Assembly: GCA_040235515.1 (NCBI GenBank)
Contig: JBECKX010000164.1
Location: 1 to 42,886, forward strand
Source: Candidatus Zixiibacteriota bacterium
GTDB lineage: Bacteria > Zixibacteria > MSB-5A5 > CAIYYT01
Direction: 5' to 3'
Length of the DNA stretch: 42,886 nucleotides
Both the position numbers and the translations under genes were made by a program. The notes beneath the pieces are model-generated. The model was not told the DNA's origin, made no database searches, and was given only the letters and a program-made list of their open reading frames with translations. This document shows, in pieces, positions 1,254-10,399 of this stretch; the first letter of the stretch is position 1, and every line of letters starts with the position of its first letter.

Positions 1254-1276
1254 CGTTTGCAACGTATTGGAGATTG

Positions 1277-1621
1277 ATGGCCAACGAAGCTCTACGTGTT
1301 CCAATCGAATTAAAGGGTAGTCAATTTGTGCGCTCCACCTCCACGGTGGAGTTTGCCCGTTTTCTATTGGAAACTGAACTGGGCAGCTACGAACCTGATC
1401 TGGAATTCGGCTGCCGCTCTCCTTATTTCACTCCGGAGTATACCGAAGACCTGAGGGTCACGGTACGCAACCACGTGATCGAGCAGTTTCGTCGTTACAT
1501 GGGGCTTGATGTCAATGTCTTGATCTCTGAAAACGTGCAATCGGCGGTTGCGACCTTTGCCTGCGAGATCACCGGGACCGATAACCGCGGTGAGCGGTTC
1601 AAGCTAATCTGGGAGATATAG
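1277..1621 (+). CDS. tssE: gp25/TssE-like baseplate wedge protein
   Basis: 114 aa between vgrG and tssF; LLETELGSYEPDLEFGC resembles the gp25/TssE T..GE...D.EFGC motif; GGAG just upstream of ATG 1277. Confidence 0.62.
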   Translation: MANEALRVPIELKGSQFVRSTSTVEFARFLLETELGSYEPDLEFGCRSPYFTPEYTEDLRVTVRNHVIEQFRRYMGLDVNVLISENVQSAVATFACEITGTDNRGERFKLIWEI

Positions 1622-1624
1622 TCG

Positions 1625-3382
1625 ATGGCGGAAAAATGGAGTGATCGTCACGAACAAGCATACCAGGAAGTAGTGGATCGGCTGCGTTTCTGGGGTTATC
1701 CGGTACCGACCGGCGAGAAGCAGATGGACCCGGCGCTGCTGCTGATGCTAAAGACATTTGCGCATCACACCGTCGCGACCGAGGATCGCCTCAGGAAAGC
1801 TTCCGAAGAAGTGATCGACTCTTTTGTCAGCGAGTTCTTCCTGACCGGGTTGAAACGTCCGACGCCGGCATTCACGATGGTGTCGTGCACCTGCACCGAG
1901 CAACGCGCGATCGTTGAGGACGATCTGGAGTTCCGCTGTTCGATCGGTGGCCATAACCCTAAGGAGTATTCGTTCTATCCACTCTATTCCCAGGAGATCT
2001 ACGAGATCAACTCCGACCTGGTGATCTTCACTTCAGGTGAGTACCTGCGAGTGCTCAAGACCCTGCCGGAAGAAACGGAGAAGTGGGAAGAGGCACTTGA
2101 CTCGCCGGCGTATCGCAACATGAAACGACAGGAACCGCCGCCGCGCGGTGGCAGCTTCTATATCGGCGTGACCAGCTCACTCAATCTCGAGAATGTCGAG
2201 GGCATCACACTCTATCTCGGGCCCGACAGTCGAGTCGCCAATTCGTTGAAATGGGCGGACTGGAGCATCTTGAGCGAGAGCGGCTATGGCGACAGATTCA
2301 AGGCGGGCGCGTTCGAGGACCGCCTCGAGATATTCAAACATCTCGACATTCGTGAGTATGAATTCGATACGAACTTTTCCAGTCGTCTATACAGTTCCGA
2401 TTTGCTGACTTCGGGCAAGACGATGTGGCACTTCAAGCACTACCTGGGAGCGGCACGCAACTTCATTTATCTGCCGTCGGAGCATTTGAGTGTGGCAACC
2501 AAGATGACGGTACCGCCTGAGATCGAGCGCCGATTCGCTCATCTCGATTACTCCGGCCTCTCCACACCGCGCTGGTGGATCAAGGTTGATCTTGCGCCGG
2601 ACCACGAAATCGGCGACCTGCGGCGCTACCGGTACTTCGACACCAATACACTTCTGCTGATAAACCGCCAGAAATTGCATCGCAACAAGTACACGATGGG
2701 ACAGCCGGTGCTTGAAGTTAACCTGTTCGACAGTCCGACCGATGATGGTGAGCATCTACCTGACAAGCTATTTGCAATCGAGCGCGTCTGGGATTCGCGC
2801 GAGGATGAGTACGTCAACAGTCTGGACATGAGTGCCTACGGCAACCCCAGAAAGTACGTCGTTGCCGATGAGGAGGGCTCGATCAAGATCAAGTTCGACT
2901 TCCAGGTGAGCGGCAAATTGCCACCCGACTTCGTGGTGGTGGAGTACTCACTCACCGACGGCGAGAACGGTAACGGTATCGGCTCCGACGTCGAGATAGA
3001 GCTGGCGGGGGAGCATCCTCAGATAGAGGGTGTCCGCAATCTGCTCACATCCTCCGGGGGATCGAACGCCAAGACTCCGGAGGAGATCAAGCGGCTGATC
3101 GGTTTCTTCCTGCGCAACCATGGTACCGCTCTTTCCAATTCTGAGATCGAGTTTCTGGCTCGCAGTTTCGACACGAGGATTACCCGCGCTCGCGCGGAGC
3201 GAACGATTCTGCCCACCGACGGCGGATTGGTGCCATCGGTTCGGGTGGCGATCAATCTTGATCCCGGTGCAAAGATGGCCGATGAGGAAAAGCGCTGGAT
3301 GCTCGACCGGCTCAGTTCTTACCTCGACTGCTATACACCCCTTAACCTCAGGCTGATCGCCGAAATGGCCCCTGAAGGGTAG
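1625..3382 (+). CDS. tssF: T6SS baseplate protein TssF (Bacteroidota T6SS-iii-like)
   Basis: 585 aa; N-terminus RLRFWGY...MDPALLLMLKTFA matches the T6SS-iii TssF pattern (WG...DP...L); C-terminal TDGENGNGI and NLLTSSGG baseplate-J-like motifs. Confidence 0.75.
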   Translation: MAEKWSDRHEQAYQEVVDRLRFWGYPVPTGEKQMDPALLLMLKTFAHHTVATEDRLRKASEEVIDSFVSEFFLTGLKRPTPAFTMVSCTCTEQRAIVEDDLEFRCSIGGHNPKEYSFYPLYSQEIYEINSDLVIFTSGEYLRVLKTLPEETEKWEEALDSPAYRNMKRQEPPPRGGSFYIGVTSSLNLENVEGITLYLGPDSRVANSLKWADWSILSESGYGDRFKAGAFEDRLEIFKHLDIREYEFDTNFSSRLYSSDLLTSGKTMWHFKHYLGAARNFIYLPSEHLSVATKMTVPPEIERRFAHLDYSGLSTPRWWIKVDLAPDHEIGDLRRYRYFDTNTLLLINRQKLHRNKYTMGQPVLEVNLFDSPTDDGEHLPDKLFAIERVWDSREDEYVNSLDMSAYGNPRKYVVADEEGSIKIKFDFQVSGKLPPDFVVVEYSLTDGENGNGIGSDVEIELAGEHPQIEGVRNLLTSSGGSNAKTPEEIKRLIGFFLRNHGTALSNSEIEFLARSFDTRITRARAERTILPTDGGLVPSVRVAINLDPGAKMADEEKRWMLDRLSSYLDCYTPLNLRLIAEMAPEG

Positions 3383-3424: not shown

Positions 3425-4345
3425 ATGAAGACCGGATTTATTACACAGCATCAGCCAGTCAACAAGCGCACCCGGCTGTCGGAGTTTTCACTGCTGCTGG
3501 CAAAGCTCGATGTTAAGGCGCAGCAGTTTTATTTCCGCAGCCTGGAGGCGCACGGCAATTATCACACGGACATCAAGTCGATCCGAACGGTGGCCACCCG
3601 CGGCGAGGGGCGCAGGGAGGAGCGTGTCGTCGACGCGCATCTGCCCTCATTCAAGAATTACTTCCCGGAATCTTTCTTTGTAGAGCTTCTCGAGGAATCG
3701 GACACGCTCGCGGGCAGATTCGAGGACCGTTTCCTCGAGTTCTGGAGCGCCTTCGACACGACAACCTACCGGAACTGGATCGACATTTACACGCTGCAGC
3801 TGCGGATGCTCTTTGTCGTGTCAGACGAGGAAACCGAAAACCTCTACTGGCAGCGACTCGGTGGCGATATGCCGAGCCTGCCGCCGGAAGAACGGAGATT
3901 TCTTTTGCTCCTGCGGTTCTTTGGCCCATTCCTGCGTGGTCGCTCGCTCCTCTTTGATCGGATCATTCCAGCTTTCACGGGCAAGCCGACCCATGTCGAA
4001 GAGTTTGTGCCGGCCCAGACCGAGATCCCGGAGCAGTTGCAATGGTCATTGGGCAAGAAAAACAGCCGCCTGGGGCGTGACATTTTCCCGGGTCGCCAAT
4101 TCACGCAAAACTCGACGCGGTTCCGGGTAGTCCTGGAGCAACTGGACGAAGAAGATATTCCTGATTTTATTCCTCATGGTAAACGCCGGGTGTTGTTGGA
4201 GAACCTGAGCAGGCTGTTTGCGCCTGCACATCAGGATTCGCAGCTCGAATACCGATTCAAGGCGGGTCTGCAATTGTTCACTCCGGGCACGCAACACCAA
4301 ACAGCTTACCTGGGACTTTCAACATACTTGCGGGAGACCTTTTAG
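3425..4345 (+). CDS. tssG: T6SS baseplate protein TssG
   Basis: 306 aa directly after tssF; C-terminal WSLGKKNSRLGRD..PG, DFIPHGK and YLGLSTYL motifs are typical of TssG. Confidence 0.7.
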   Translation: MKTGFITQHQPVNKRTRLSEFSLLLAKLDVKAQQFYFRSLEAHGNYHTDIKSIRTVATRGEGRREERVVDAHLPSFKNYFPESFFVELLEESDTLAGRFEDRFLEFWSAFDTTTYRNWIDIYTLQLRMLFVVSDEETENLYWQRLGGDMPSLPPEERRFLLLLRFFGPFLRGRSLLFDRIIPAFTGKPTHVEEFVPAQTEIPEQLQWSLGKKNSRLGRDIFPGRQFTQNSTRFRVVLEQLDEEDIPDFIPHGKRRVLLENLSRLFAPAHQDSQLEYRFKAGLQLFTPGTQHQTAYLGLSTYLRETF

Positions 4346-4420
4346 CGGGGTATATTGCTGGCCAAATTGCCGGCTAATCTGCGCGGTTTTATCATCGGTG
4401 CTACAGGTTTGCAGCGCAGG

Positions 4421-4429
4421 TGGTAAACT
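4421..4429 (+). promoter_or_regulatory. Possible extended -10 internal promoter upstream of tssK
   Basis: TGGTAAACT (TGn-TAAACT) in the 134-bp tssG-tssK gap, about 50 nt before ATG 4480; no clear -35. Confidence 0.25.
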
Positions 4430-4479
4430 CCCGACAAGAGTCTTGGCAGAACTCTTTATCTGAATGGGCAGAAAGCAGT

Positions 4480-5952
4480 ATGGATAATCTAAATGTATGG
4501 GGCGTAAACTGGATCGACGGTATGCTCGTAACCAGTCGCCACTTGAATCAACAGGAAGAATTCGCGCAGAACCTGACTCGCTGGTCAGCATTAGCGCTTG
4601 CCCCCGGCTATGGCCTTGCCAAGAGCGCCATCAGCAACAGCGAACCGCTCGAGATCCAATTGAGGCGCAGCGGGAATACGCTGACAGTGGAAGTACAACA
4701 TTGCACCGCGTTGTTGCCCAACGGCACAATCGTCAACATCAACGACGCCTTCCGCAAACACAAGGCGGTTGAGTTGAAGATCGATGTCTCCAAGCGCAAC
4801 GATGATACGATCCCGGTGTTCCTCTACTCTGCAACCGACAAAGTCACACAGTTCGGCGAGCCGCTGCAGGGTGAACAACTGAGCCGGTTGCCTTACCAGA
4901 CTCCCAAGATCATCCTGACCGATAAGCCGTCGGAGGATTTGCCGAGTTCCGCGTCGATACAACTTGCCGAGATCAAGTACGATGGGACCGACTACGAGTT
5001 GAATGAGCGATTCGTCCCGCCGGTGCTTTCGACCTCGTGCGGTAAAGCGGTCGGCAATCGTATGGAGCAGGTTCGCAAGAATGTTGACCAGATACAGCGC
5101 GCCGCGCTGCAGGCGGTGGCGGAGGTTCGCAACCTGGTCAAAGCCAAGCCATCCGCCGGTGAGGAGGAGCGGCTGCGCGGGATTTTCCTGCAGTCGGAGA
5201 ATCTCCTGCACCTGTTGAGCTTCAACTACAACAGAATCTTCGCCAACGCGGTCGGCGTTGACTTTCCGACCCTGCATTGCTTCTTCACAGGTATCGTCGG
5301 CAGTTTCCAGCAGGCATTCCTGATCTATCCCGATCTGCGCGAGTATGTTCGAGCCGCAGAATTGCAGGCAGGCGAGCGCACGGTGAACGGCGGGGACGCC
5401 CTCTCCTCTCTCCGTGACTATCAGACCGGCAACTTCGGTTTCCATGAGATGACACAGTTCTTCGACGCAACAGACAAGACATTCGAGAACCTGCAGGCGA
5501 TCTTGAGCTACTACTCCTCCGGTAAGGAGGGTCCGAAGGGTGACTCTATCGAACAGGACGGATTCCGTTTCCTGGCGCAACGTCACGGAGCAGTCCGTTA
5601 CACAGCCAGCGGTGGAAGACACCTGATCGTCATCGACGGTGTCGATCCGCGCGCTACAGAGGATGTTGTGGTGAGATTGCACAAGAAGGTCCTGCCGATG
5701 CAGTATGCGGGCAACGTGATCATCTACCTCGGCGCCAATGAGATCGACGATATCGCTGCCGCGTCGGTGGCACGCAAGCCGGTGGAGGATGTATCCGATC
5801 CCGATTACTGGCTGATCCAGCCGAATGAATATTTCCCGCTCAAAGCGAGCCGCCTTGATCGACTCAATGTGATCATTGATGGTGAGGTTGATGCTGCAGC
5901 CTTGAAAGCGGTACAGATGAATCACGTCGCAATCTTCTCGCGGTCGCGTTAG
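4480..5952 (+). CDS. tssK: T6SS baseplate-membrane connector TssK with C-terminal extra domain
   Basis: VNWIDGMLVTSRHLNQQE is the TssK N-terminal signature, with GYGL and LNERFVPPVLS motifs; ATG 4480 preferred over GTG 4420; 490 aa. Confidence 0.75.
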   Translation: MDNLNVWGVNWIDGMLVTSRHLNQQEEFAQNLTRWSALALAPGYGLAKSAISNSEPLEIQLRRSGNTLTVEVQHCTALLPNGTIVNINDAFRKHKAVELKIDVSKRNDDTIPVFLYSATDKVTQFGEPLQGEQLSRLPYQTPKIILTDKPSEDLPSSASIQLAEIKYDGTDYELNERFVPPVLSTSCGKAVGNRMEQVRKNVDQIQRAALQAVAEVRNLVKAKPSAGEEERLRGIFLQSENLLHLLSFNYNRIFANAVGVDFPTLHCFFTGIVGSFQQAFLIYPDLREYVRAAELQAGERTVNGGDALSSLRDYQTGNFGFHEMTQFFDATDKTFENLQAILSYYSSGKEGPKGDSIEQDGFRFLAQRHGAVRYTASGGRHLIVIDGVDPRATEDVVVRLHKKVLPMQYAGNVIIYLGANEIDDIAAASVARKPVEDVSDPDYWLIQPNEYFPLKASRLDRLNVIIDGEVDAAALKAVQMNHVAIFSRSR

Positions 5953-5972: not shown

Positions 5973-6971
5973 ATGTCGGAACGCGTTAAAGCTGTCATCA
6001 ATTCCCTCTTCGTTCAGCTTAATCGAGCAGAGCGCCAGCAATCTGATTTCAGCGCTGATACATTCATGCGCGACTTCGCTGCGTTCTTTTCGGGCGTGGA
6101 CAGTGCTGACATGCAGACTCAGGGTGGGGAAATCGACGAGCAGCTCAAGCTGCGCATCAATAATGTCCCACGCAACGCCCAGCCCCTGACACTCGTTACC
6201 GCCAACGTCCTGGCTCTCTATTTCTGGTATGTGCGTCGCCCACCCCAGCAGTGCCAGAACGCGTTCCTGGCCGCGAAGAAGCTCCGCGGAATCACCGACG
6301 ACAGCCAGTTCGTCGAACAGGCGATAGCGCCATTGATTTTCGGCGGCAAGATCCCGGCACTGAAGAAATCGGATCGCGACTTCCGCGAGGCGTTGCTTGA
6401 ACGGACGGCACAGATTGCCGTCAATTTCCGCGAGAGCGATCAGGTTCCGCAATCGGCGACTCGTATCATTCGCTCCGATTCGTGGCAGAAGAAGATGCTG
6501 CACATCGAGGCACTGCGGCAGCGCGGGGCGATGGCGGAAATCCAGGACTTCGCGCCGAAAGATCACCTCGAGGCGATCTCGCGCACCAATGATTTTGCAG
6601 CCTACTATCTGCGTAAACACAATATCTACAAAGGCGAAAACCGTTTCCTGCGCTGGCTGCGAAACCTGTTCGCCAATTTCTTCTCACTGCTGTTTTCGTT
6701 CCTCAACTGGCGTTTCGTCATGCACCTGTTCAAGAACAAGTGGCCGGTATACCTGGTCTACCTTTTCGTCGCGGTGCTGTTTGTTGCGGCAGCGTACTTC
6801 GCTCGCGTACCGTGGCAGTATGTCCATGAACAGAAAGTGGAAGAACTGCAGGAGATGAACCCGATCGGCGTCGATAAAGCCGTATCGGCGGCATCGACCA
6901 AACCAACACCAGCGGTTAATCCAGCCGGTGCGGATTCTGTGGATACCTCTGATCAAGAGAGTGAGGGATAA
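5973..6971 (+). CDS. Hypothetical membrane protein, helical N-terminal domain plus C-terminal TM helix (TssL-like topology)
   Basis: 332 aa; hydrophobic stretch WPVYLVYLFVAVLFVAAAYF near the C-terminus, followed by a short low-complexity tail; co-oriented and tightly spaced after tssK. Confidence 0.8.
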   Translation: MSERVKAVINSLFVQLNRAERQQSDFSADTFMRDFAAFFSGVDSADMQTQGGEIDEQLKLRINNVPRNAQPLTLVTANVLALYFWYVRRPPQQCQNAFLAAKKLRGITDDSQFVEQAIAPLIFGGKIPALKKSDRDFREALLERTAQIAVNFRESDQVPQSATRIIRSDSWQKKMLHIEALRQRGAMAEIQDFAPKDHLEAISRTNDFAAYYLRKHNIYKGENRFLRWLRNLFANFFSLLFSFLNWRFVMHLFKNKWPVYLVYLFVAVLFVAAAYFARVPWQYVHEQKVEELQEMNPIGVDKAVSAASTKPTPAVNPAGADSVDTSDQESEG

Positions 6972-6973
6972 CG

Positions 6974-8887
6974 ATGAATCCGTTTGCTCTGATCAAGAAA
7001 GTGTTCACTGCCTTCAAGAAGAAGTCGGCAGAACAGGCTGAAGCCGATAAGGGGCCGGCCGGTGCGCCATTTGAGAAGGATGATAACGTTGTCCTGGTCT
7101 TCGGCCATTCCAATGCCGGAAAGACGGTATACTTCTCCGTCCTGTACGAACTGCTAAAAGGCGATTCTTCCTACAAGCTATCTCCCTTAAACAATGAGAC
7201 CGCCGCCACGCTGATCGAGAATTTCAATCTGATGCGGGGCAAGCAGCTCAAGATCAAAGATGGACGGCAGGTGGAGGTGGAAGGGGAGCGGAAATTCCCG
7301 ACGATGACTTCCGAGACCAGAATCTTGAAGTTTGGGCTCGATATGTCGCTCCGCAAGGGAGTCAAGTTCTATACGGTCGACTACAAGGGCGAGACGCTTT
7401 CGATCGCCGAACCGGGTGGTCTGCGCAAGCAATTCGCCAAGTTCTTCCCGCACGCGCGCGCGGCACTATTTTTCATTGATGCATCGGTACTCGATACCGA
7501 CGTCCTGCTGCGGGAACAGATTGCGGCGTTCCAGACGATCATCGCCGACCTGCGTGATTGTTCACCCGGCAGGGTCCCGATCGGTATCGTCATCACCAAG
7601 GCGGATTTCCTGGATGGCTATTCTCCCTCCAACCCGGTCGACCTGATACCGGCCAATGCCGCGATTTTCAAGGGCCGCAGCTCACAGTCGTTTATCAAGG
7701 GTCTGGCGCGGGTGAATCGCGAACGCTTCGGGGAGAAGTGGGCCAATACATGTGAACGCGTGACTCAAAACTTGCGGAACCTGATCGATTCGATGATCAG
7801 CTACAACCTCGATTTCCAATTCTTCTTCGTCTCCGCGACCGGCGGCCTTGAAAAGACTCCCAGTGGGGACGTCCTCCCCCCACGTGAGTTGGCGCCCGCC
7901 GGAGTCCCGCAACCACTCATCTGGGGATTCAACCGCATCCTCTTCAACAAGAGCAAGGCGCGCTGGAGGAAGATAATGAAGTGGGCCATCGGGTTGAGCC
8001 TGGTCTGGATTGCATTGGTCAGCCTGATCAACCTGTACCACATGTATGCCACCTACGATGTTCTGGAGAGGGCTGAGACGCAATTCCGCAAACGCTTCAA
8101 CCTGGAGGCGCCGGAGATCAGCAAAGAGGAGGCGGAGCGGATCACTGATTCGTACGATGATTACCTCAGCCGCCTGCCGGTAGCGGAGTTCTTCGGCGCA
8201 GGAGCACTGATCGAGCACAGCAAGGAGCGAAAGAATTTCGCAATCTCAAGGACCAACAATCTGCTCAAGCCACCGGCGGACTTCAACCAGGAGGATGCCG
8301 CCCCTGTCACCAATGAGGAACTCGGGTATAGTCCTGAGAAGACCAAACAAGCTCGTGAGAGTTACAACCGCATGACCGGAGATGTCGGGGATCTGCCTCC
8401 TGCTGAGCAGATTGCTGCGTTTGAGGCGGCAATCAACAAGCTCTGGACCGAGTTTCCGAAGGATAGCCTGAATCCGAAGTTCGTGGAGAAGGTGATGCAG
8501 GCGCTCGACAACTTCAAGTCCGGTGTGGGGGCTGTATCAGAAGTCAAGTTTACACTTACGCTGGCTGTCGATGGTCTGCGTGAAGCTACGAAGATTTCTA
8601 TGAAGATCGGGACCGAGCCGGAAGCGGAATTCGTCAACTTCTCGACAAAGAAGAACCTGCAGAGCAAAGTCACTGGTATCGGAAACCAGCCGGTGGAACT
8701 CAAGTGGTTCGACTACGGACCCTCCAGTACCGGTCAGCCGCTAACGATGCGGTTCGACAACCCGATGCAGGACTTCTATCCCGAACTACGTAAAGGTGTG
8801 CGTCTCGATTTCGGAAAGGATTATGAGATTACACTCAAGCTGATTTCCGGATCGCCGCCACAACCTTCGGGACCTCCGAAGATCTAG
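6974..8887 (+). CDS. Membrane-anchored TRAFAC-class GTPase with C-terminal extracytoplasmic domain (TssM-like topology)
   Basis: G1 GHSNAGKT (7103-7126), G3 DYKG, G4 TKAD, G5 SAT; TM helix WAIGLSLVWIALVSLINL; about 280 aa helical then beta-rich region after the TM. Confidence 0.85.
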   Translation: MNPFALIKKVFTAFKKKSAEQAEADKGPAGAPFEKDDNVVLVFGHSNAGKTVYFSVLYELLKGDSSYKLSPLNNETAATLIENFNLMRGKQLKIKDGRQVEVEGERKFPTMTSETRILKFGLDMSLRKGVKFYTVDYKGETLSIAEPGGLRKQFAKFFPHARAALFFIDASVLDTDVLLREQIAAFQTIIADLRDCSPGRVPIGIVITKADFLDGYSPSNPVDLIPANAAIFKGRSSQSFIKGLARVNRERFGEKWANTCERVTQNLRNLIDSMISYNLDFQFFFVSATGGLEKTPSGDVLPPRELAPAGVPQPLIWGFNRILFNKSKARWRKIMKWAIGLSLVWIALVSLINLYHMYATYDVLERAETQFRKRFNLEAPEISKEEAERITDSYDDYLSRLPVAEFFGAGALIEHSKERKNFAISRTNNLLKPPADFNQEDAAPVTNEELGYSPEKTKQARESYNRMTGDVGDLPPAEQIAAFEAAINKLWTEFPKDSLNPKFVEKVMQALDNFKSGVGAVSEVKFTLTLAVDGLREATKISMKIGTEPEAEFVNFSTKKNLQSKVTGIGNQPVELKWFDYGPSSTGQPLTMRFDNPMQDFYPELRKGVRLDFGKDYEITLKLISGSPPQPSGPPKI

Positions 8888-8941
8888 CAACCACTTCAAT
8901 CGGCCAACTCCCAAACCACCGGCAATTCGAGGGCAGCTAGC

Positions 8942-9835
8942 ATGCAAATCGCTGACTTGATTTATGGCACCTTCCCCGATTTACCGGGATCGCAGCAGGT
9001 AGTCCACAGGTCAGACTCGATCGACGAAACACTGCTTGAGTGGTTGATCACGAGCTATGATCGTTTCGGTGATTGCCGCAGCGAGGAGTTCAAGAACTCG
9101 GTCACGGTGGTCTGGTATCGACACGACCCCTCGAATCCTCTCACCTGCATCACCAAAGTCACTCAACAATCGAAAGATTTCTCAGGCAGATGGGGTGCGC
9201 TGCTGCGGCATACCGTGATCGTACCGCAGGCCGAGTACGAGCGTCACGCCTGCCTGCCGCTCCTGTTCGCCAGTCGTCTGGTCGAATCAGGTGGCTCAGA
9301 AGAATTGGGCGCGCGGGAGGATCTGCAACTGGAAATAGCGCAGCCATTGCACTCGAGTGAGATAATCGCCGGTGCCTCGATCGAAAGCTACAAGGAGAAC
9401 ATCGGCAAGCTGCTACTCGGCGAAAGGTTGGTTTTGTACTCCGATGCACTCAACGATTACCTGAGCGGTTACCTGAGCACACTGGTTGCCCTGTTGCCGC
9501 TTCAGGCAAGACGGATGCTGAATTGGTCACAGTTCCTCTTTCGGGAATGGGAGGCGCTGGACCTCAGCGTGGTTTACAACTCGCGCTACGAAGCGCCGAC
9601 GGGCGGCCCGGTAACCTTCGCCGCCCAGGGTAAGAACCTCTTGAGTGCGCTGCAGCTTTCCTCAGCCGACGTCGCCTCCTATCTTGATCGTTTGGAGCGG
9701 GCATTCGCTGCTGAGGATCACGCCGAACTCGCGGCATTGCTGGATTCAGAGGATTGGCGGAGTGAGGCTACGACTGCCGCGGCGGAATCGCCGCGGGCTG
9801 ATGTGGAAAGAAAAAGCGATGAGTCAGAGAACTGA
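8942..9835 (+). CDS. GTPase-associated protein 1 N-terminal (GAP1-N)-like / TagF-like protein
   Basis: 297 aa; IADLIYGTF...QQVVHRS and KDFSGRWGALLRHTVIV resemble GAP1-N domain motifs (D..GR.G....H.L); last gene of the operon. Confidence 0.55.
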   Translation: MQIADLIYGTFPDLPGSQQVVHRSDSIDETLLEWLITSYDRFGDCRSEEFKNSVTVVWYRHDPSNPLTCITKVTQQSKDFSGRWGALLRHTVIVPQAEYERHACLPLLFASRLVESGGSEELGAREDLQLEIAQPLHSSEIIAGASIESYKENIGKLLLGERLVLYSDALNDYLSGYLSTLVALLPLQARRMLNWSQFLFREWEALDLSVVYNSRYEAPTGGPVTFAAQGKNLLSALQLSSADVASYLDRLERAFAAEDHAELAALLDSEDWRSEATTAAAESPRADVERKSDESEN

Positions 9836-9871: not shown

Positions 9872-10399
9872 TTACTTCTGGTAGACGACCGGTGTGTCTT
9901 CCTTGACAACCGGCTTGAAGAGATTCTGACCCTCCGGGAATTTTACATCATTGCCCTTCAGGATGAATCCCTGCAACCACGGCGGTATGTAGGAGACTAT
10001 TTTCTTTACGCCGCCACCTTCACCCTTGAACTCCACGACACCGCGCAGCGGGATCAATGTTCCGCCGGATGATTTAGTCGAATCGAAGTTGATCGTCATC
10101 ATGCCGTTGCGGCCGAATGAGCTGCCGCCACGACGCTTGATCATCGTCGCATAAACGACTTCACGCTTGTTGACCAGTTTCTGGTCGAACCTCATGACGT
10201 TCTCCAGCACCTTCAGGGTCACAACCTGACCGGGGCGTGCAGATTTCATGGCAGTGAAATCATCCTGATCAAGGTAGACTGGAATGGAGTCACCCTGATT
10301 GAGCAATGCGTCACCGGTCGCCTGCGCGGCGGCATTCGGTGCGCAGAACGCCAGGGCCAGAGCCACAAGCCCGATTAATATAATCCCTGTTAACTTCAT
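9872..10399 (-). CDS. Secreted protein, possible TrbI/VirB10-like beta domain
   Basis: Sec signal MKLTGIILIGLVALALAFCAPNAAA; strong SD (GGAGGT); pattern KSARPGQ.V.L.V.ENV...FGRNG.M.I.FDS....G..IPLRG. Confidence 0.75.
   Translation of the reverse strand: MKLTGIILIGLVALALAFCAPNAAAQATGDALLNQGDSIPVYLDQDDFTAMKSARPGQVVTLKVLENVMRFDQKLVNKREVVYATMIKRRGGSSFGRNGMMTINFDSTKSSGGTLIPLRGVVEFKGEGGGVKKIVSYIPPWLQGFILKGNDVKFPEGQNLFKPVVKEDTPVVYQK

Follow-up and report, generated by a model that had tools for sequence, protein, structure and literature searches.

A Membrane-Anchored, DO-GTPase-like Protein Encoded at the TssM Position of a T6SS Locus in Candidatus Zixiibacteriota

Closest Described Systems and Comparison with the Locus

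For TssM of the T6SS, the accessible parts of Ma et al. (2012; PMC3346141) give Walker A, DxxG, and (N/T)KxD as hallmarks, describe ATPase activity, or nucleotide hydrolysis, of the Agrobacterium protein as being required for Hcp secretion, and mention GTP hydrolysis by TssM in passing. The GTPase hallmarks are likewise noted in the available sections of a further publication (PMC8508121). Among published syntenies, the arrangements tssJKLM and tssG-K-N are found in the available text of PMC10781749. For TagF, the partners published in the accessible portions of PMC5995506 and of a 2025 TagF preprint are Fha and Hcp, not TssM; G8 and D81/R85 are conserved residues of the P. aeruginosa protein (Lin et al. 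2018, PMC5995506), and neither DENN nor GTP is mentioned in the available part of the preprint. Longin-DENN folds are described as regulators of GTPases in eukaryotes (Zhang et al. 2012, PMC3521125).

In the window, i.e., the whole stretch of 42,886 nucleotides analyzed here, a gene on the forward strand (6974..8887) encodes a membrane-anchored, DO-GTPase-like, and TssM-related GTPase of 637 aa. It occupies the same place as tssM in the TssJ-TssL-TssM systems with TagF, namely after tssK and a gene for a C-terminally anchored helical protein. Like TssM, the GTPase features a cytoplasmic P-loop domain with DxxG and [TS]KxD and profile homology from beta4 to the next TM helix, and, as in tssM-tagF, its gene is followed by one for a protein with a predicted TagF-like fold. 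Unlike TssM with its about 1150-1250 aa, it lacks N-terminal TM helices, and its external part is unrelated, much shorter, and matched by no IcmF Pfam domain. In contrast to T6SS-i, no TssJ or DotU was found, and the core genes are Bacteroidota-like. With the T6SS-iii of Bacteroidota (TssNOPQR), as far as it is described in the available text of Bongiovanni et al. (2024; PMC10781749), the locus shares the TssC (PF17541) and TssD (PF17642) families and a membrane protein gene adjoining tssG-tssK. It differs from T6SS-iii in that the conserved membrane gene is that of the GTPase and ClpV is usually split into two genes; TssN and TssR searches, run without a positive control, gave no match in the genome.

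The DO-GTPase/GAP1 conflict systems of the GAP1-N2 type (Kaur et al. 2020, PMC7159879; PF19993, PF20013), termed "GTPase-centric" and considered here in the accessible part of their description, resemble the locus in their TRAFAC GTPase, the Walker B region of which has a Glu, in a GAP1-N2/M gene directly downstream, and in a position near the membrane. Unlike in these systems, the loci read contain a single GTPase and neither zinc ribbons nor variable effectors, partners of the FNIII (N2 type) or GASH (N1 type) kind are missing from them, and the GTPase has a C-terminal TM helix and an external domain and is embedded in a T6SS; its flanks consist of T6SS core genes, orf332, orf175, and unrelated housekeeping genes. 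The accessible text and two supplements of Kaur et al. (PMC7159879) do not link DO-GTPase systems to T6SS. A further likeness is to longin-DENN regulators (DENND1-Rab35 and FLCN-Rag, in the available part of PMC3521125), since the model of the GAP1-like protein aligns with DENND1A and the GTPase model best matches Rag. Asgard DENN genes also adjoin a GTPase gene, according to the part of Liu et al. (bioRxiv 2020.10.19.343400) available. Unlike the eukaryotic and Asgard proteins, the one considered here is bacterial and tied to a secretion machine, its fold is a predicted one, and the comparisons yielded 8-14% identity at an rmsd of 4.5-5.4. In the literature covered, which largely excludes subscription journals, no description of a GTPase-anchored T6SS and no paper joining TagF with DENN was found.

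Gene Content of the T6SS Locus

The locus starts on the forward strand with the 3' part of vgrG, cut by the contig start (3..1253; Phage_base_V E 4e-27, VgrG_rel E 6e-54), followed by a tssE-like baseplate gene (1274..1621) without a Pfam match of its own, the same-cluster orthologue of which matches gp25 (E 4e-15). A tssF-like baseplate gene (1625..3382; TIGR02243 E 1e-3; orthologue T6SS_TssF E 1e-4, under the cut-off), tssG (3425..4345; T6SS_TssG E 4e-16), and tssK (4420..5952; T6SS_VasE E 2e-6, TIGR03353 E 1.5e-13) come next on the same strand; judging from orthologue length, the true start of tssK probably lies about 20 codons downstream. These genes are followed by orf332, the GTPase gene, and the GAP1-like gene, and by orf175 on the opposite strand. 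Contig C177 of the same genome carries, at its start, a kinase gene, clpV in two pieces, tssB, and tssC. No hcp was found in this assembly, the gene probably falling in an assembly gap. TssB, TssC, Hcp, VgrG, TssEFGK, and ClpV are all present in relatives, and the window together with contig C177 holds all of them but hcp. The gene set is that of a T6SS, with a Bacteroidota-type sheath, tube, and baseplate. DotU gave no Pfam match in the source genome and TssJ none in five genomes (0/5), the positive control being matched in both searches, and a tssA-like gene was not observed within the conserved cluster of the loci read.

Motifs, Conservation, and Topology of the GTPase

Motif conservation was scored over 68 aligned homologues with identities down to 20%. 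G1, the P-loop GHSNAGKT (aa 44-51; 7103..7126, forward strand as for all motifs of this gene), features G44, G49, and K50 in 68/68 homologues, and T51 is Thr in 62 and Ser in 6 of them. Thr112 represents G2 in switch I (7307..7309; T in 63, S in 5). In G3, consisting of DYKG and the following Glu140 (7379..7393), G139 occurs in 68/68 homologues, D136 is Asp in 65 and Glu in 3, and the Glu is present in 29. G4, TKAD (aa 208-211; 7595..7606), with K209 and D211 in all 68, is aligned with TssM and succeeded by xxGF as in that protein, and G5, SAT (aa 287-289; 7832..7840; S in 65, T in 3), aligns with GVYFTS of TssM. Glu140 is located at the position of Ras Gln61 and represents the signature Glu of DO-GTPases. 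G1 to G5 are thus present in the order that defines TRAFAC-class P-loop GTPases throughout the 68 homologues. The initial annotation had described G1, G3, G4, and G5 as intact, with which both the translation and the alignment agree, G2 being added here. The invariant Gly/Gly/Lys of G1, Gly of G3, and Lys/Asp of G4 suggest that guanine-nucleotide binding is under selection.

Among 25 close homologues, mean column identity amounted to 0.86-0.90 for aa 41-200 compared to 0.33-0.42 for aa 361-600. The most hydrophobic 19-mer (Kyte-Doolittle 2.07), aa 334-352 (7973..8029), represents the single TM helix; the net charge is +5 before and -1 after it, indicating an N-in, C-out orientation. In 51/51 full-length family members, the start of the best hydrophobic segment falls within aa 330-345; its N-terminal flank is the more positive one in 50/51, and a Kyte-Doolittle value of 1.6 is reached in 41/51. 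The external part comprises 285 aa here (269-387 aa across full-length members) and, according to the predicted model, is composed of a helical region, a beta-sandwich (aa 524-630; 8543..8863), and a Pro-rich tail, all poorly conserved. These results bear out the TM helix, the external helical plus beta domain, and the Pro-rich tail that had been read from the sequence before. The beta-sandwich is weakly C2-like, as deduced by Foldseek (E 0.009 or weaker) and VIA (Z 6.6-6.7, 96-106 aligned, rmsd 3.6-4.1), values that are middling. The full-length model retrieved no Foldseek match at E<=0.001, and the profile of the family none among PDB sequences below E 0.001. The low-confidence model, poor over the G domain, gave fold matches to Rag, Arf, and G-alpha, the best ones being Rag GTPases (Z 9.1-9.8, 118-135 aligned, rmsd 3.1-3.7). 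Altogether, the GTPase consists of a strongly constrained TRAFAC-type G domain in the cytoplasm, a single helix in the inner membrane, and an external part of modest length.

Relation of the GTPase to DO-GTPases and TssM

The Pfam profile DO-GTPase2 (PF19993) matched the GTPase at E 6e-5, which is under the cut-off, and several homologues exceeded the cut-off. IcmF-related_N, also named for searching in the initial annotation, gave no match at the cut-off in the source genome (the positive control matched) and sub-threshold matches in 6 of 45 homologues. In hhalign comparisons, the family profile aligned with 14 standalone DO-GTPase-like proteins, themselves retrieved with that same profile, at 100% (E 6.5e-43), and with nine TssM cytoplasmic regions at 95.7% (E 1e-8, 188 columns). 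The latter alignment spans beta4, TKADxxxGF (G4), the G5 strand, and a basic stretch, and extends into the TM helix; 11 other pairings in the same comparison reached at most 0.6%, and TssM versus the DO-GTPase set 79.8%. The conserved Glu in the Walker B region that marks DO-GTPase domains is represented by Glu140. According to these profile comparisons, the G domain is distantly homologous to the cytoplasmic region of TssM and has its far closer relatives among standalone DO-GTPases. The initial annotation had supposed a link of TssM with the GTPase conflict systems, which is supported. The description as a compact TssM analogue stood with respect to position and role and has to be revised insofar as the likeness is one of remote homology and not of analogy only. 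No IcmF Pfam domain was matched anywhere in the GTPase, including the 285-aa external part, and Pfam and fold comparison revealed no likeness of this part to TssM periplasmic domains.

The intact motifs had also been regarded as setting the protein apart from an often degenerate TssM domain, a distinction that did not hold. Walker A, DxxG, and [TS]KxD were present in 9/9 proteobacterial TssMs examined, a biased sample chosen as tagF neighbours, and, given also the report by Ma et al. (2012), intact motifs are in themselves not new. A quick tree was built from 93 of 158 rows, and TssM is placed on a long branch in it, so no direction of descent is claimed. Several distant homologues (P0063, P0072, P0075, P0077, P0082, and P0093) are 720-1310 aa long, one of them being fused to a protein kinase, and may bridge T6SS-linked and standalone DO-GTPases.

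Distribution and Synteny Across the Phylum

Across the phylum, co-occurrence was surveyed in 285 genomes. The GTPase and the Bacteroidota-type TssC (PF17541) were each detected in 145 of them: 142 genomes carried both, 3 the GTPase only, 3 TssC only, and 137 neither, all six discordant genomes being 58-86% complete. Since kin genomes are not independent, these counts show co-inheritance and do not represent a statistic. Canonical TssM (PF14331) was found in 23/285 genomes, and among the 145 GTPase carriers in a single one (G179). The GTPase is thus strictly co-inherited with the T6SS core and nearly excludes canonical TssM. The 23 TssM genomes belong to families f3, f19, and f20 and four others, G179 having both types, and the phylum accordingly holds two nearly exclusive T6SS types.

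In relatives, the order tssB-C-hcp-vgrG-E-F-G-K-orf332-GTPase is conserved. Within the synteny set (119 loci, partly redundant), the GTPase gene was located apart from T6SS genes in 9/111 loci. Six of these represent genomes in which the T6SS core cluster lies elsewhere and ends at orf332, and the other three are metagenome contigs. The linkage of GTPase homologues to T6SS genes, on which the initial annotation depended, is supported. In four metagenome contigs of high GC content that stem from other lineages (L073, L074, L103, and L106), orf332 likewise precedes the GTPase gene, with tssK in view in two. In proteobacteria, tssK-tssL-tssM-tagF was observed in 6/7 annotated loci with tagF, the seventh being without an adjacent tssK, and the order tssK-orf332-GTPase-GAP1 mirrors this arrangement.

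Displaced GTPase genes (L032, L036, L037, L065, L066, L075, and L083) follow two to four tandem lipoprotein genes, the products of which carry beta-propeller-like repeats, and a gene for a PEGA-domain protein. Several of them are then followed by orf175 and PAAR genes, so that an enlarged envelope module is possible.

The Neighbouring Genes orf332 and orf175

The gene orf332 (5973..6971, forward strand), at the tssL/tssN position, encodes a helical protein featuring a TM helix in its C-terminal part (aa 259-277) and was found in 102 of the 111 loci that extend 500 or more bases upstream. Neither Pfam nor the ESM Atlas nor the PDB sequences yielded a family match. TssL was considered as its identity; the hhalign comparison (0.6%) was not significant, and the DotU Pfam profile gave no match in the source genome (control matched).

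A small signal-peptide protein is encoded by orf175 (9872..10399, reverse strand), which adjoins the GTPase gene in 74 of the 79 loci that extend 1600 or more bases downstream and remains with it when the operon is split. As the only conserved exported protein, it is a candidate periplasmic or outer-membrane subunit. The orf175 family includes small exported proteins more widely, and a Sphingobium plasmid protein matches at E 1e-21. When an identity as VirB10/TrbI was considered, no match to R388 VirB10 was obtained (99 shuffles scored as high), nor any TrbI/TraM match at the orf175 locus. The VirB10/TrbI identity is therefore a lead at most, given by a weak two-step link via a pair of TrbI-like proteins below the threshold (E about 2e-6 to 9e-6) and by a TraM match at E 0.028 in 2 of 39 family members.

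The GAP1-like Protein

Directly downstream of the GTPase gene, a GAP1-like protein (8942..9835, forward strand) with GAP1-N2 and GAP1-M regions (GAP1-N2 E 1e-4; ESM Atlas 0.95) is encoded, for which a longin-DENN/TagF-like fold is predicted (pLDDT of the model 93). Foldseek returned eight matches at E<=0.001, all being DENN-family or TagF chains: folliculin, DENND1A/B, C9orf72, and Acinetobacter TagF. By VIA, the model aligned with TagF 9T0N (Z 8.8, 225 aligned, rmsd 4.5), TagF 6IZ8 (Z 6.9, 120 aligned, rmsd 3.2), DENND1A (Z 8.0, 229 of 272 residues aligned, rmsd 5.4), and an Asgard longin domain (Z 9.4, 126 aligned), TagF being tied with the DENN and longin rows; a Z near 8 is little above background, and all rows above Z 7 are longin, DENN, or TagF. 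A TagF-like, longin-DENN fold over the full length of the protein is therefore predicted. The hhalign comparison with TagF (0.2%) was not significant and aligned a DxxGR motif, and a TagF_N profile search, run without a positive control, gave no match. The invariant residues G9, D79, G82, and R83 coincide in position with G8 and D81/R85, which are conserved in P. aeruginosa TagF, the profile score being not significant. The predicted complex of the G domain with GAP1 (score 0.00, mark 0.32) was not counted as evidence.

The GAP1 gene occurs in 25 of the 145 GTPase-carrier genomes, all 25 GAP1 genomes carrying the GTPase, and its absence from the other 120 carriers indicates that it is dispensable. 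At positions 8888-8941, one stop codon and 18 open codons separate the GTPase and GAP1 genes, which share one reading frame. Fusions of GTPase and GAP1 have been reported for DO-GTPase systems.

Presence of the Glu after G3 and of an adjacent GAP1 gene was scorable at 97 of the 119 loci, 22 with too little downstream DNA being dropped. Both features were present at 26 and both absent at 71 loci, with no exception. On the quick tree, the GAP1-less state requires two changes and the GAP1 state four, making two independent joint losses the probable, tree-based reading of a pattern that is suggestive and not a proof.

Proposed Role and Alternative Explanations

We consider it likely that the GTPase is the counterpart of TssM in the T6SS envelope anchor, within a membrane module that is apparently neither TssJLM nor TssNOPQR. 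Co-inheritance with the T6SS core, the near exclusion of canonical TssM, the conserved gene order, and the profile homology with TssM speak for this reading. By analogy, GTPase, orf332, and orf175 would probably form this anchor together, with TssK docking on the cytoplasmic domains as it does with TssL/TssM and TssN. The GTPase would oligomerize with orf332, in the role of TssL/TssN with TssK docking, and with orf175 on the envelope side into a channel on which the baseplate docks. Against the anchor role stands the external part (269-387 aa), which is much shorter than that of TssM and might fall short of the outer membrane. Further points against the explanation as a whole are the nine loci with a displaced GTPase gene, the lack of a TssJ match in five genomes, the non-significant profile comparisons of orf332 with TssL and of GAP1 with TagF, the two changes that suffice for the Glu/GAP1 pattern, the dispensability of GAP1, the poor model of the G domain, and the published TagF partners.

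The idea of a GTP cycle that is driven by GAP1 and gates T6SS assembly goes one step further and is put forward tentatively, with the chances slightly against it. The nucleotide state of the GTPase would then set whether TssK docks or the tail is built. Where GAP1 is present, as in the lineage studied here, it might serve as a checkpoint in concert with Glu140, acting on the G domain as a GEF or a GAP. Where Glu and GAP1 have both been lost, the G domain would probably still bind GTP, cycle slowly or not at all, and be mainly structural.

A somewhat unlikely alternative, which shares the anchor role with the preferred explanation and differs only on the switch, is that of a structural TssM counterpart in which GTP serves only as a cofactor of folding or oligomerization, the target of GAP1 being Hcp, as for TagF, or some other protein. 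The 71 of 97 scorable loci that keep a full T6SS without Glu and GAP1 would fit it, as would the binding of TagF to Fha or Hcp in the published work available; it accounts less well for the G2 Thr/Ser, a switch residue kept in 68/68 homologues, for a Glu kept exactly where GAP1 is kept, and for the regulation of eukaryotic GTPases by longin-DENN folds (PMC3521125, accessible part).

Less probable still is an accessory DO-GTPase/GAP1 switch captured beside the T6SS, which would regulate assembly or sense envelope attack, the anchor being orf332 with genes so far unrecognized. The G domain is indeed far closer to standalone DO-GTPases (E 6.5e-43, for a set retrieved with its own profile) than to TssM (E 1e-8), operon splits occur between orf332 and the GTPase gene, and in several split genomes the latter adjoins lipoprotein and PEGA-domain genes. 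Against it stand the near-perfect co-inheritance with TssC even after operon splits, the near exclusion of canonical TssM from carriers, and an alignment with TssM extending into the TM helix, and orf332 and orf175 are the only other conserved membrane genes in the loci read. That the system is no T6SS but a contractile injection system of the extracellular or cytoplasmic kind, with the GTPase as an unrelated neighbour, is highly improbable. VgrG scoring best with VgrG_rel, the very divergent TssF, and a conserved cluster in which no tssA-like gene was noticed would fit such a system; against it stand separate TssB and TssC, a TssD-family Hcp, TssK, and a ClpV-type ATPase, all of them T6SS traits.

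The proposed envelope anchor built on the GTPase points to a third architecture of the T6SS membrane complex, in 145 of 285 genomes of a little-studied phylum. It also bears on the open question of the purpose of the TssM NTPase domain, which is represented here by a compact G domain that looks soluble, has the gene of a candidate regulator as its neighbour, and is directly assayable. The predicted fold link between GAP1, TagF, and DENN suggests a hypothesis on TagF that can be tested and offers a bacterial counterpart of the regulators of eukaryotic GTPases. As a rather speculative extension, tssM-tagF and DO-GTPase-GAP1 pairs could represent one ancient module of a small GTPase and a longin-DENN regulator, of which the T6SS studied here would keep the working form, its gate being a switch of the Rab/Rag kind under a DENN-type GEF or GAP; proteobacterial TagF may then act, or once have acted, on the nucleotide state of TssM.

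Further Observations on the T6SS Genes

In most relatives, ClpV/TssH is encoded by two adjacent genes, one for Clp_N and the first AAA domain (~480 aa) and one for the second AAA domain (~365 aa), as also seen on contig C177 of the source genome (L059:2185-4700; G000:C177). A conserved split Clp ATPase is unusual. ClpV is a single gene product of 813-852 aa in families f16 and f17 and in one f6 genome. A Ser/Thr kinase gene directly upstream of clpV (L059:5022-6260; L039-L044), found in all six upstream regions of family f1 except L041, recalls PpkA-type control. Two PAAR-domain genes are located on other contigs of the same genome (C53:9769-10764 and C129:38973-40082).
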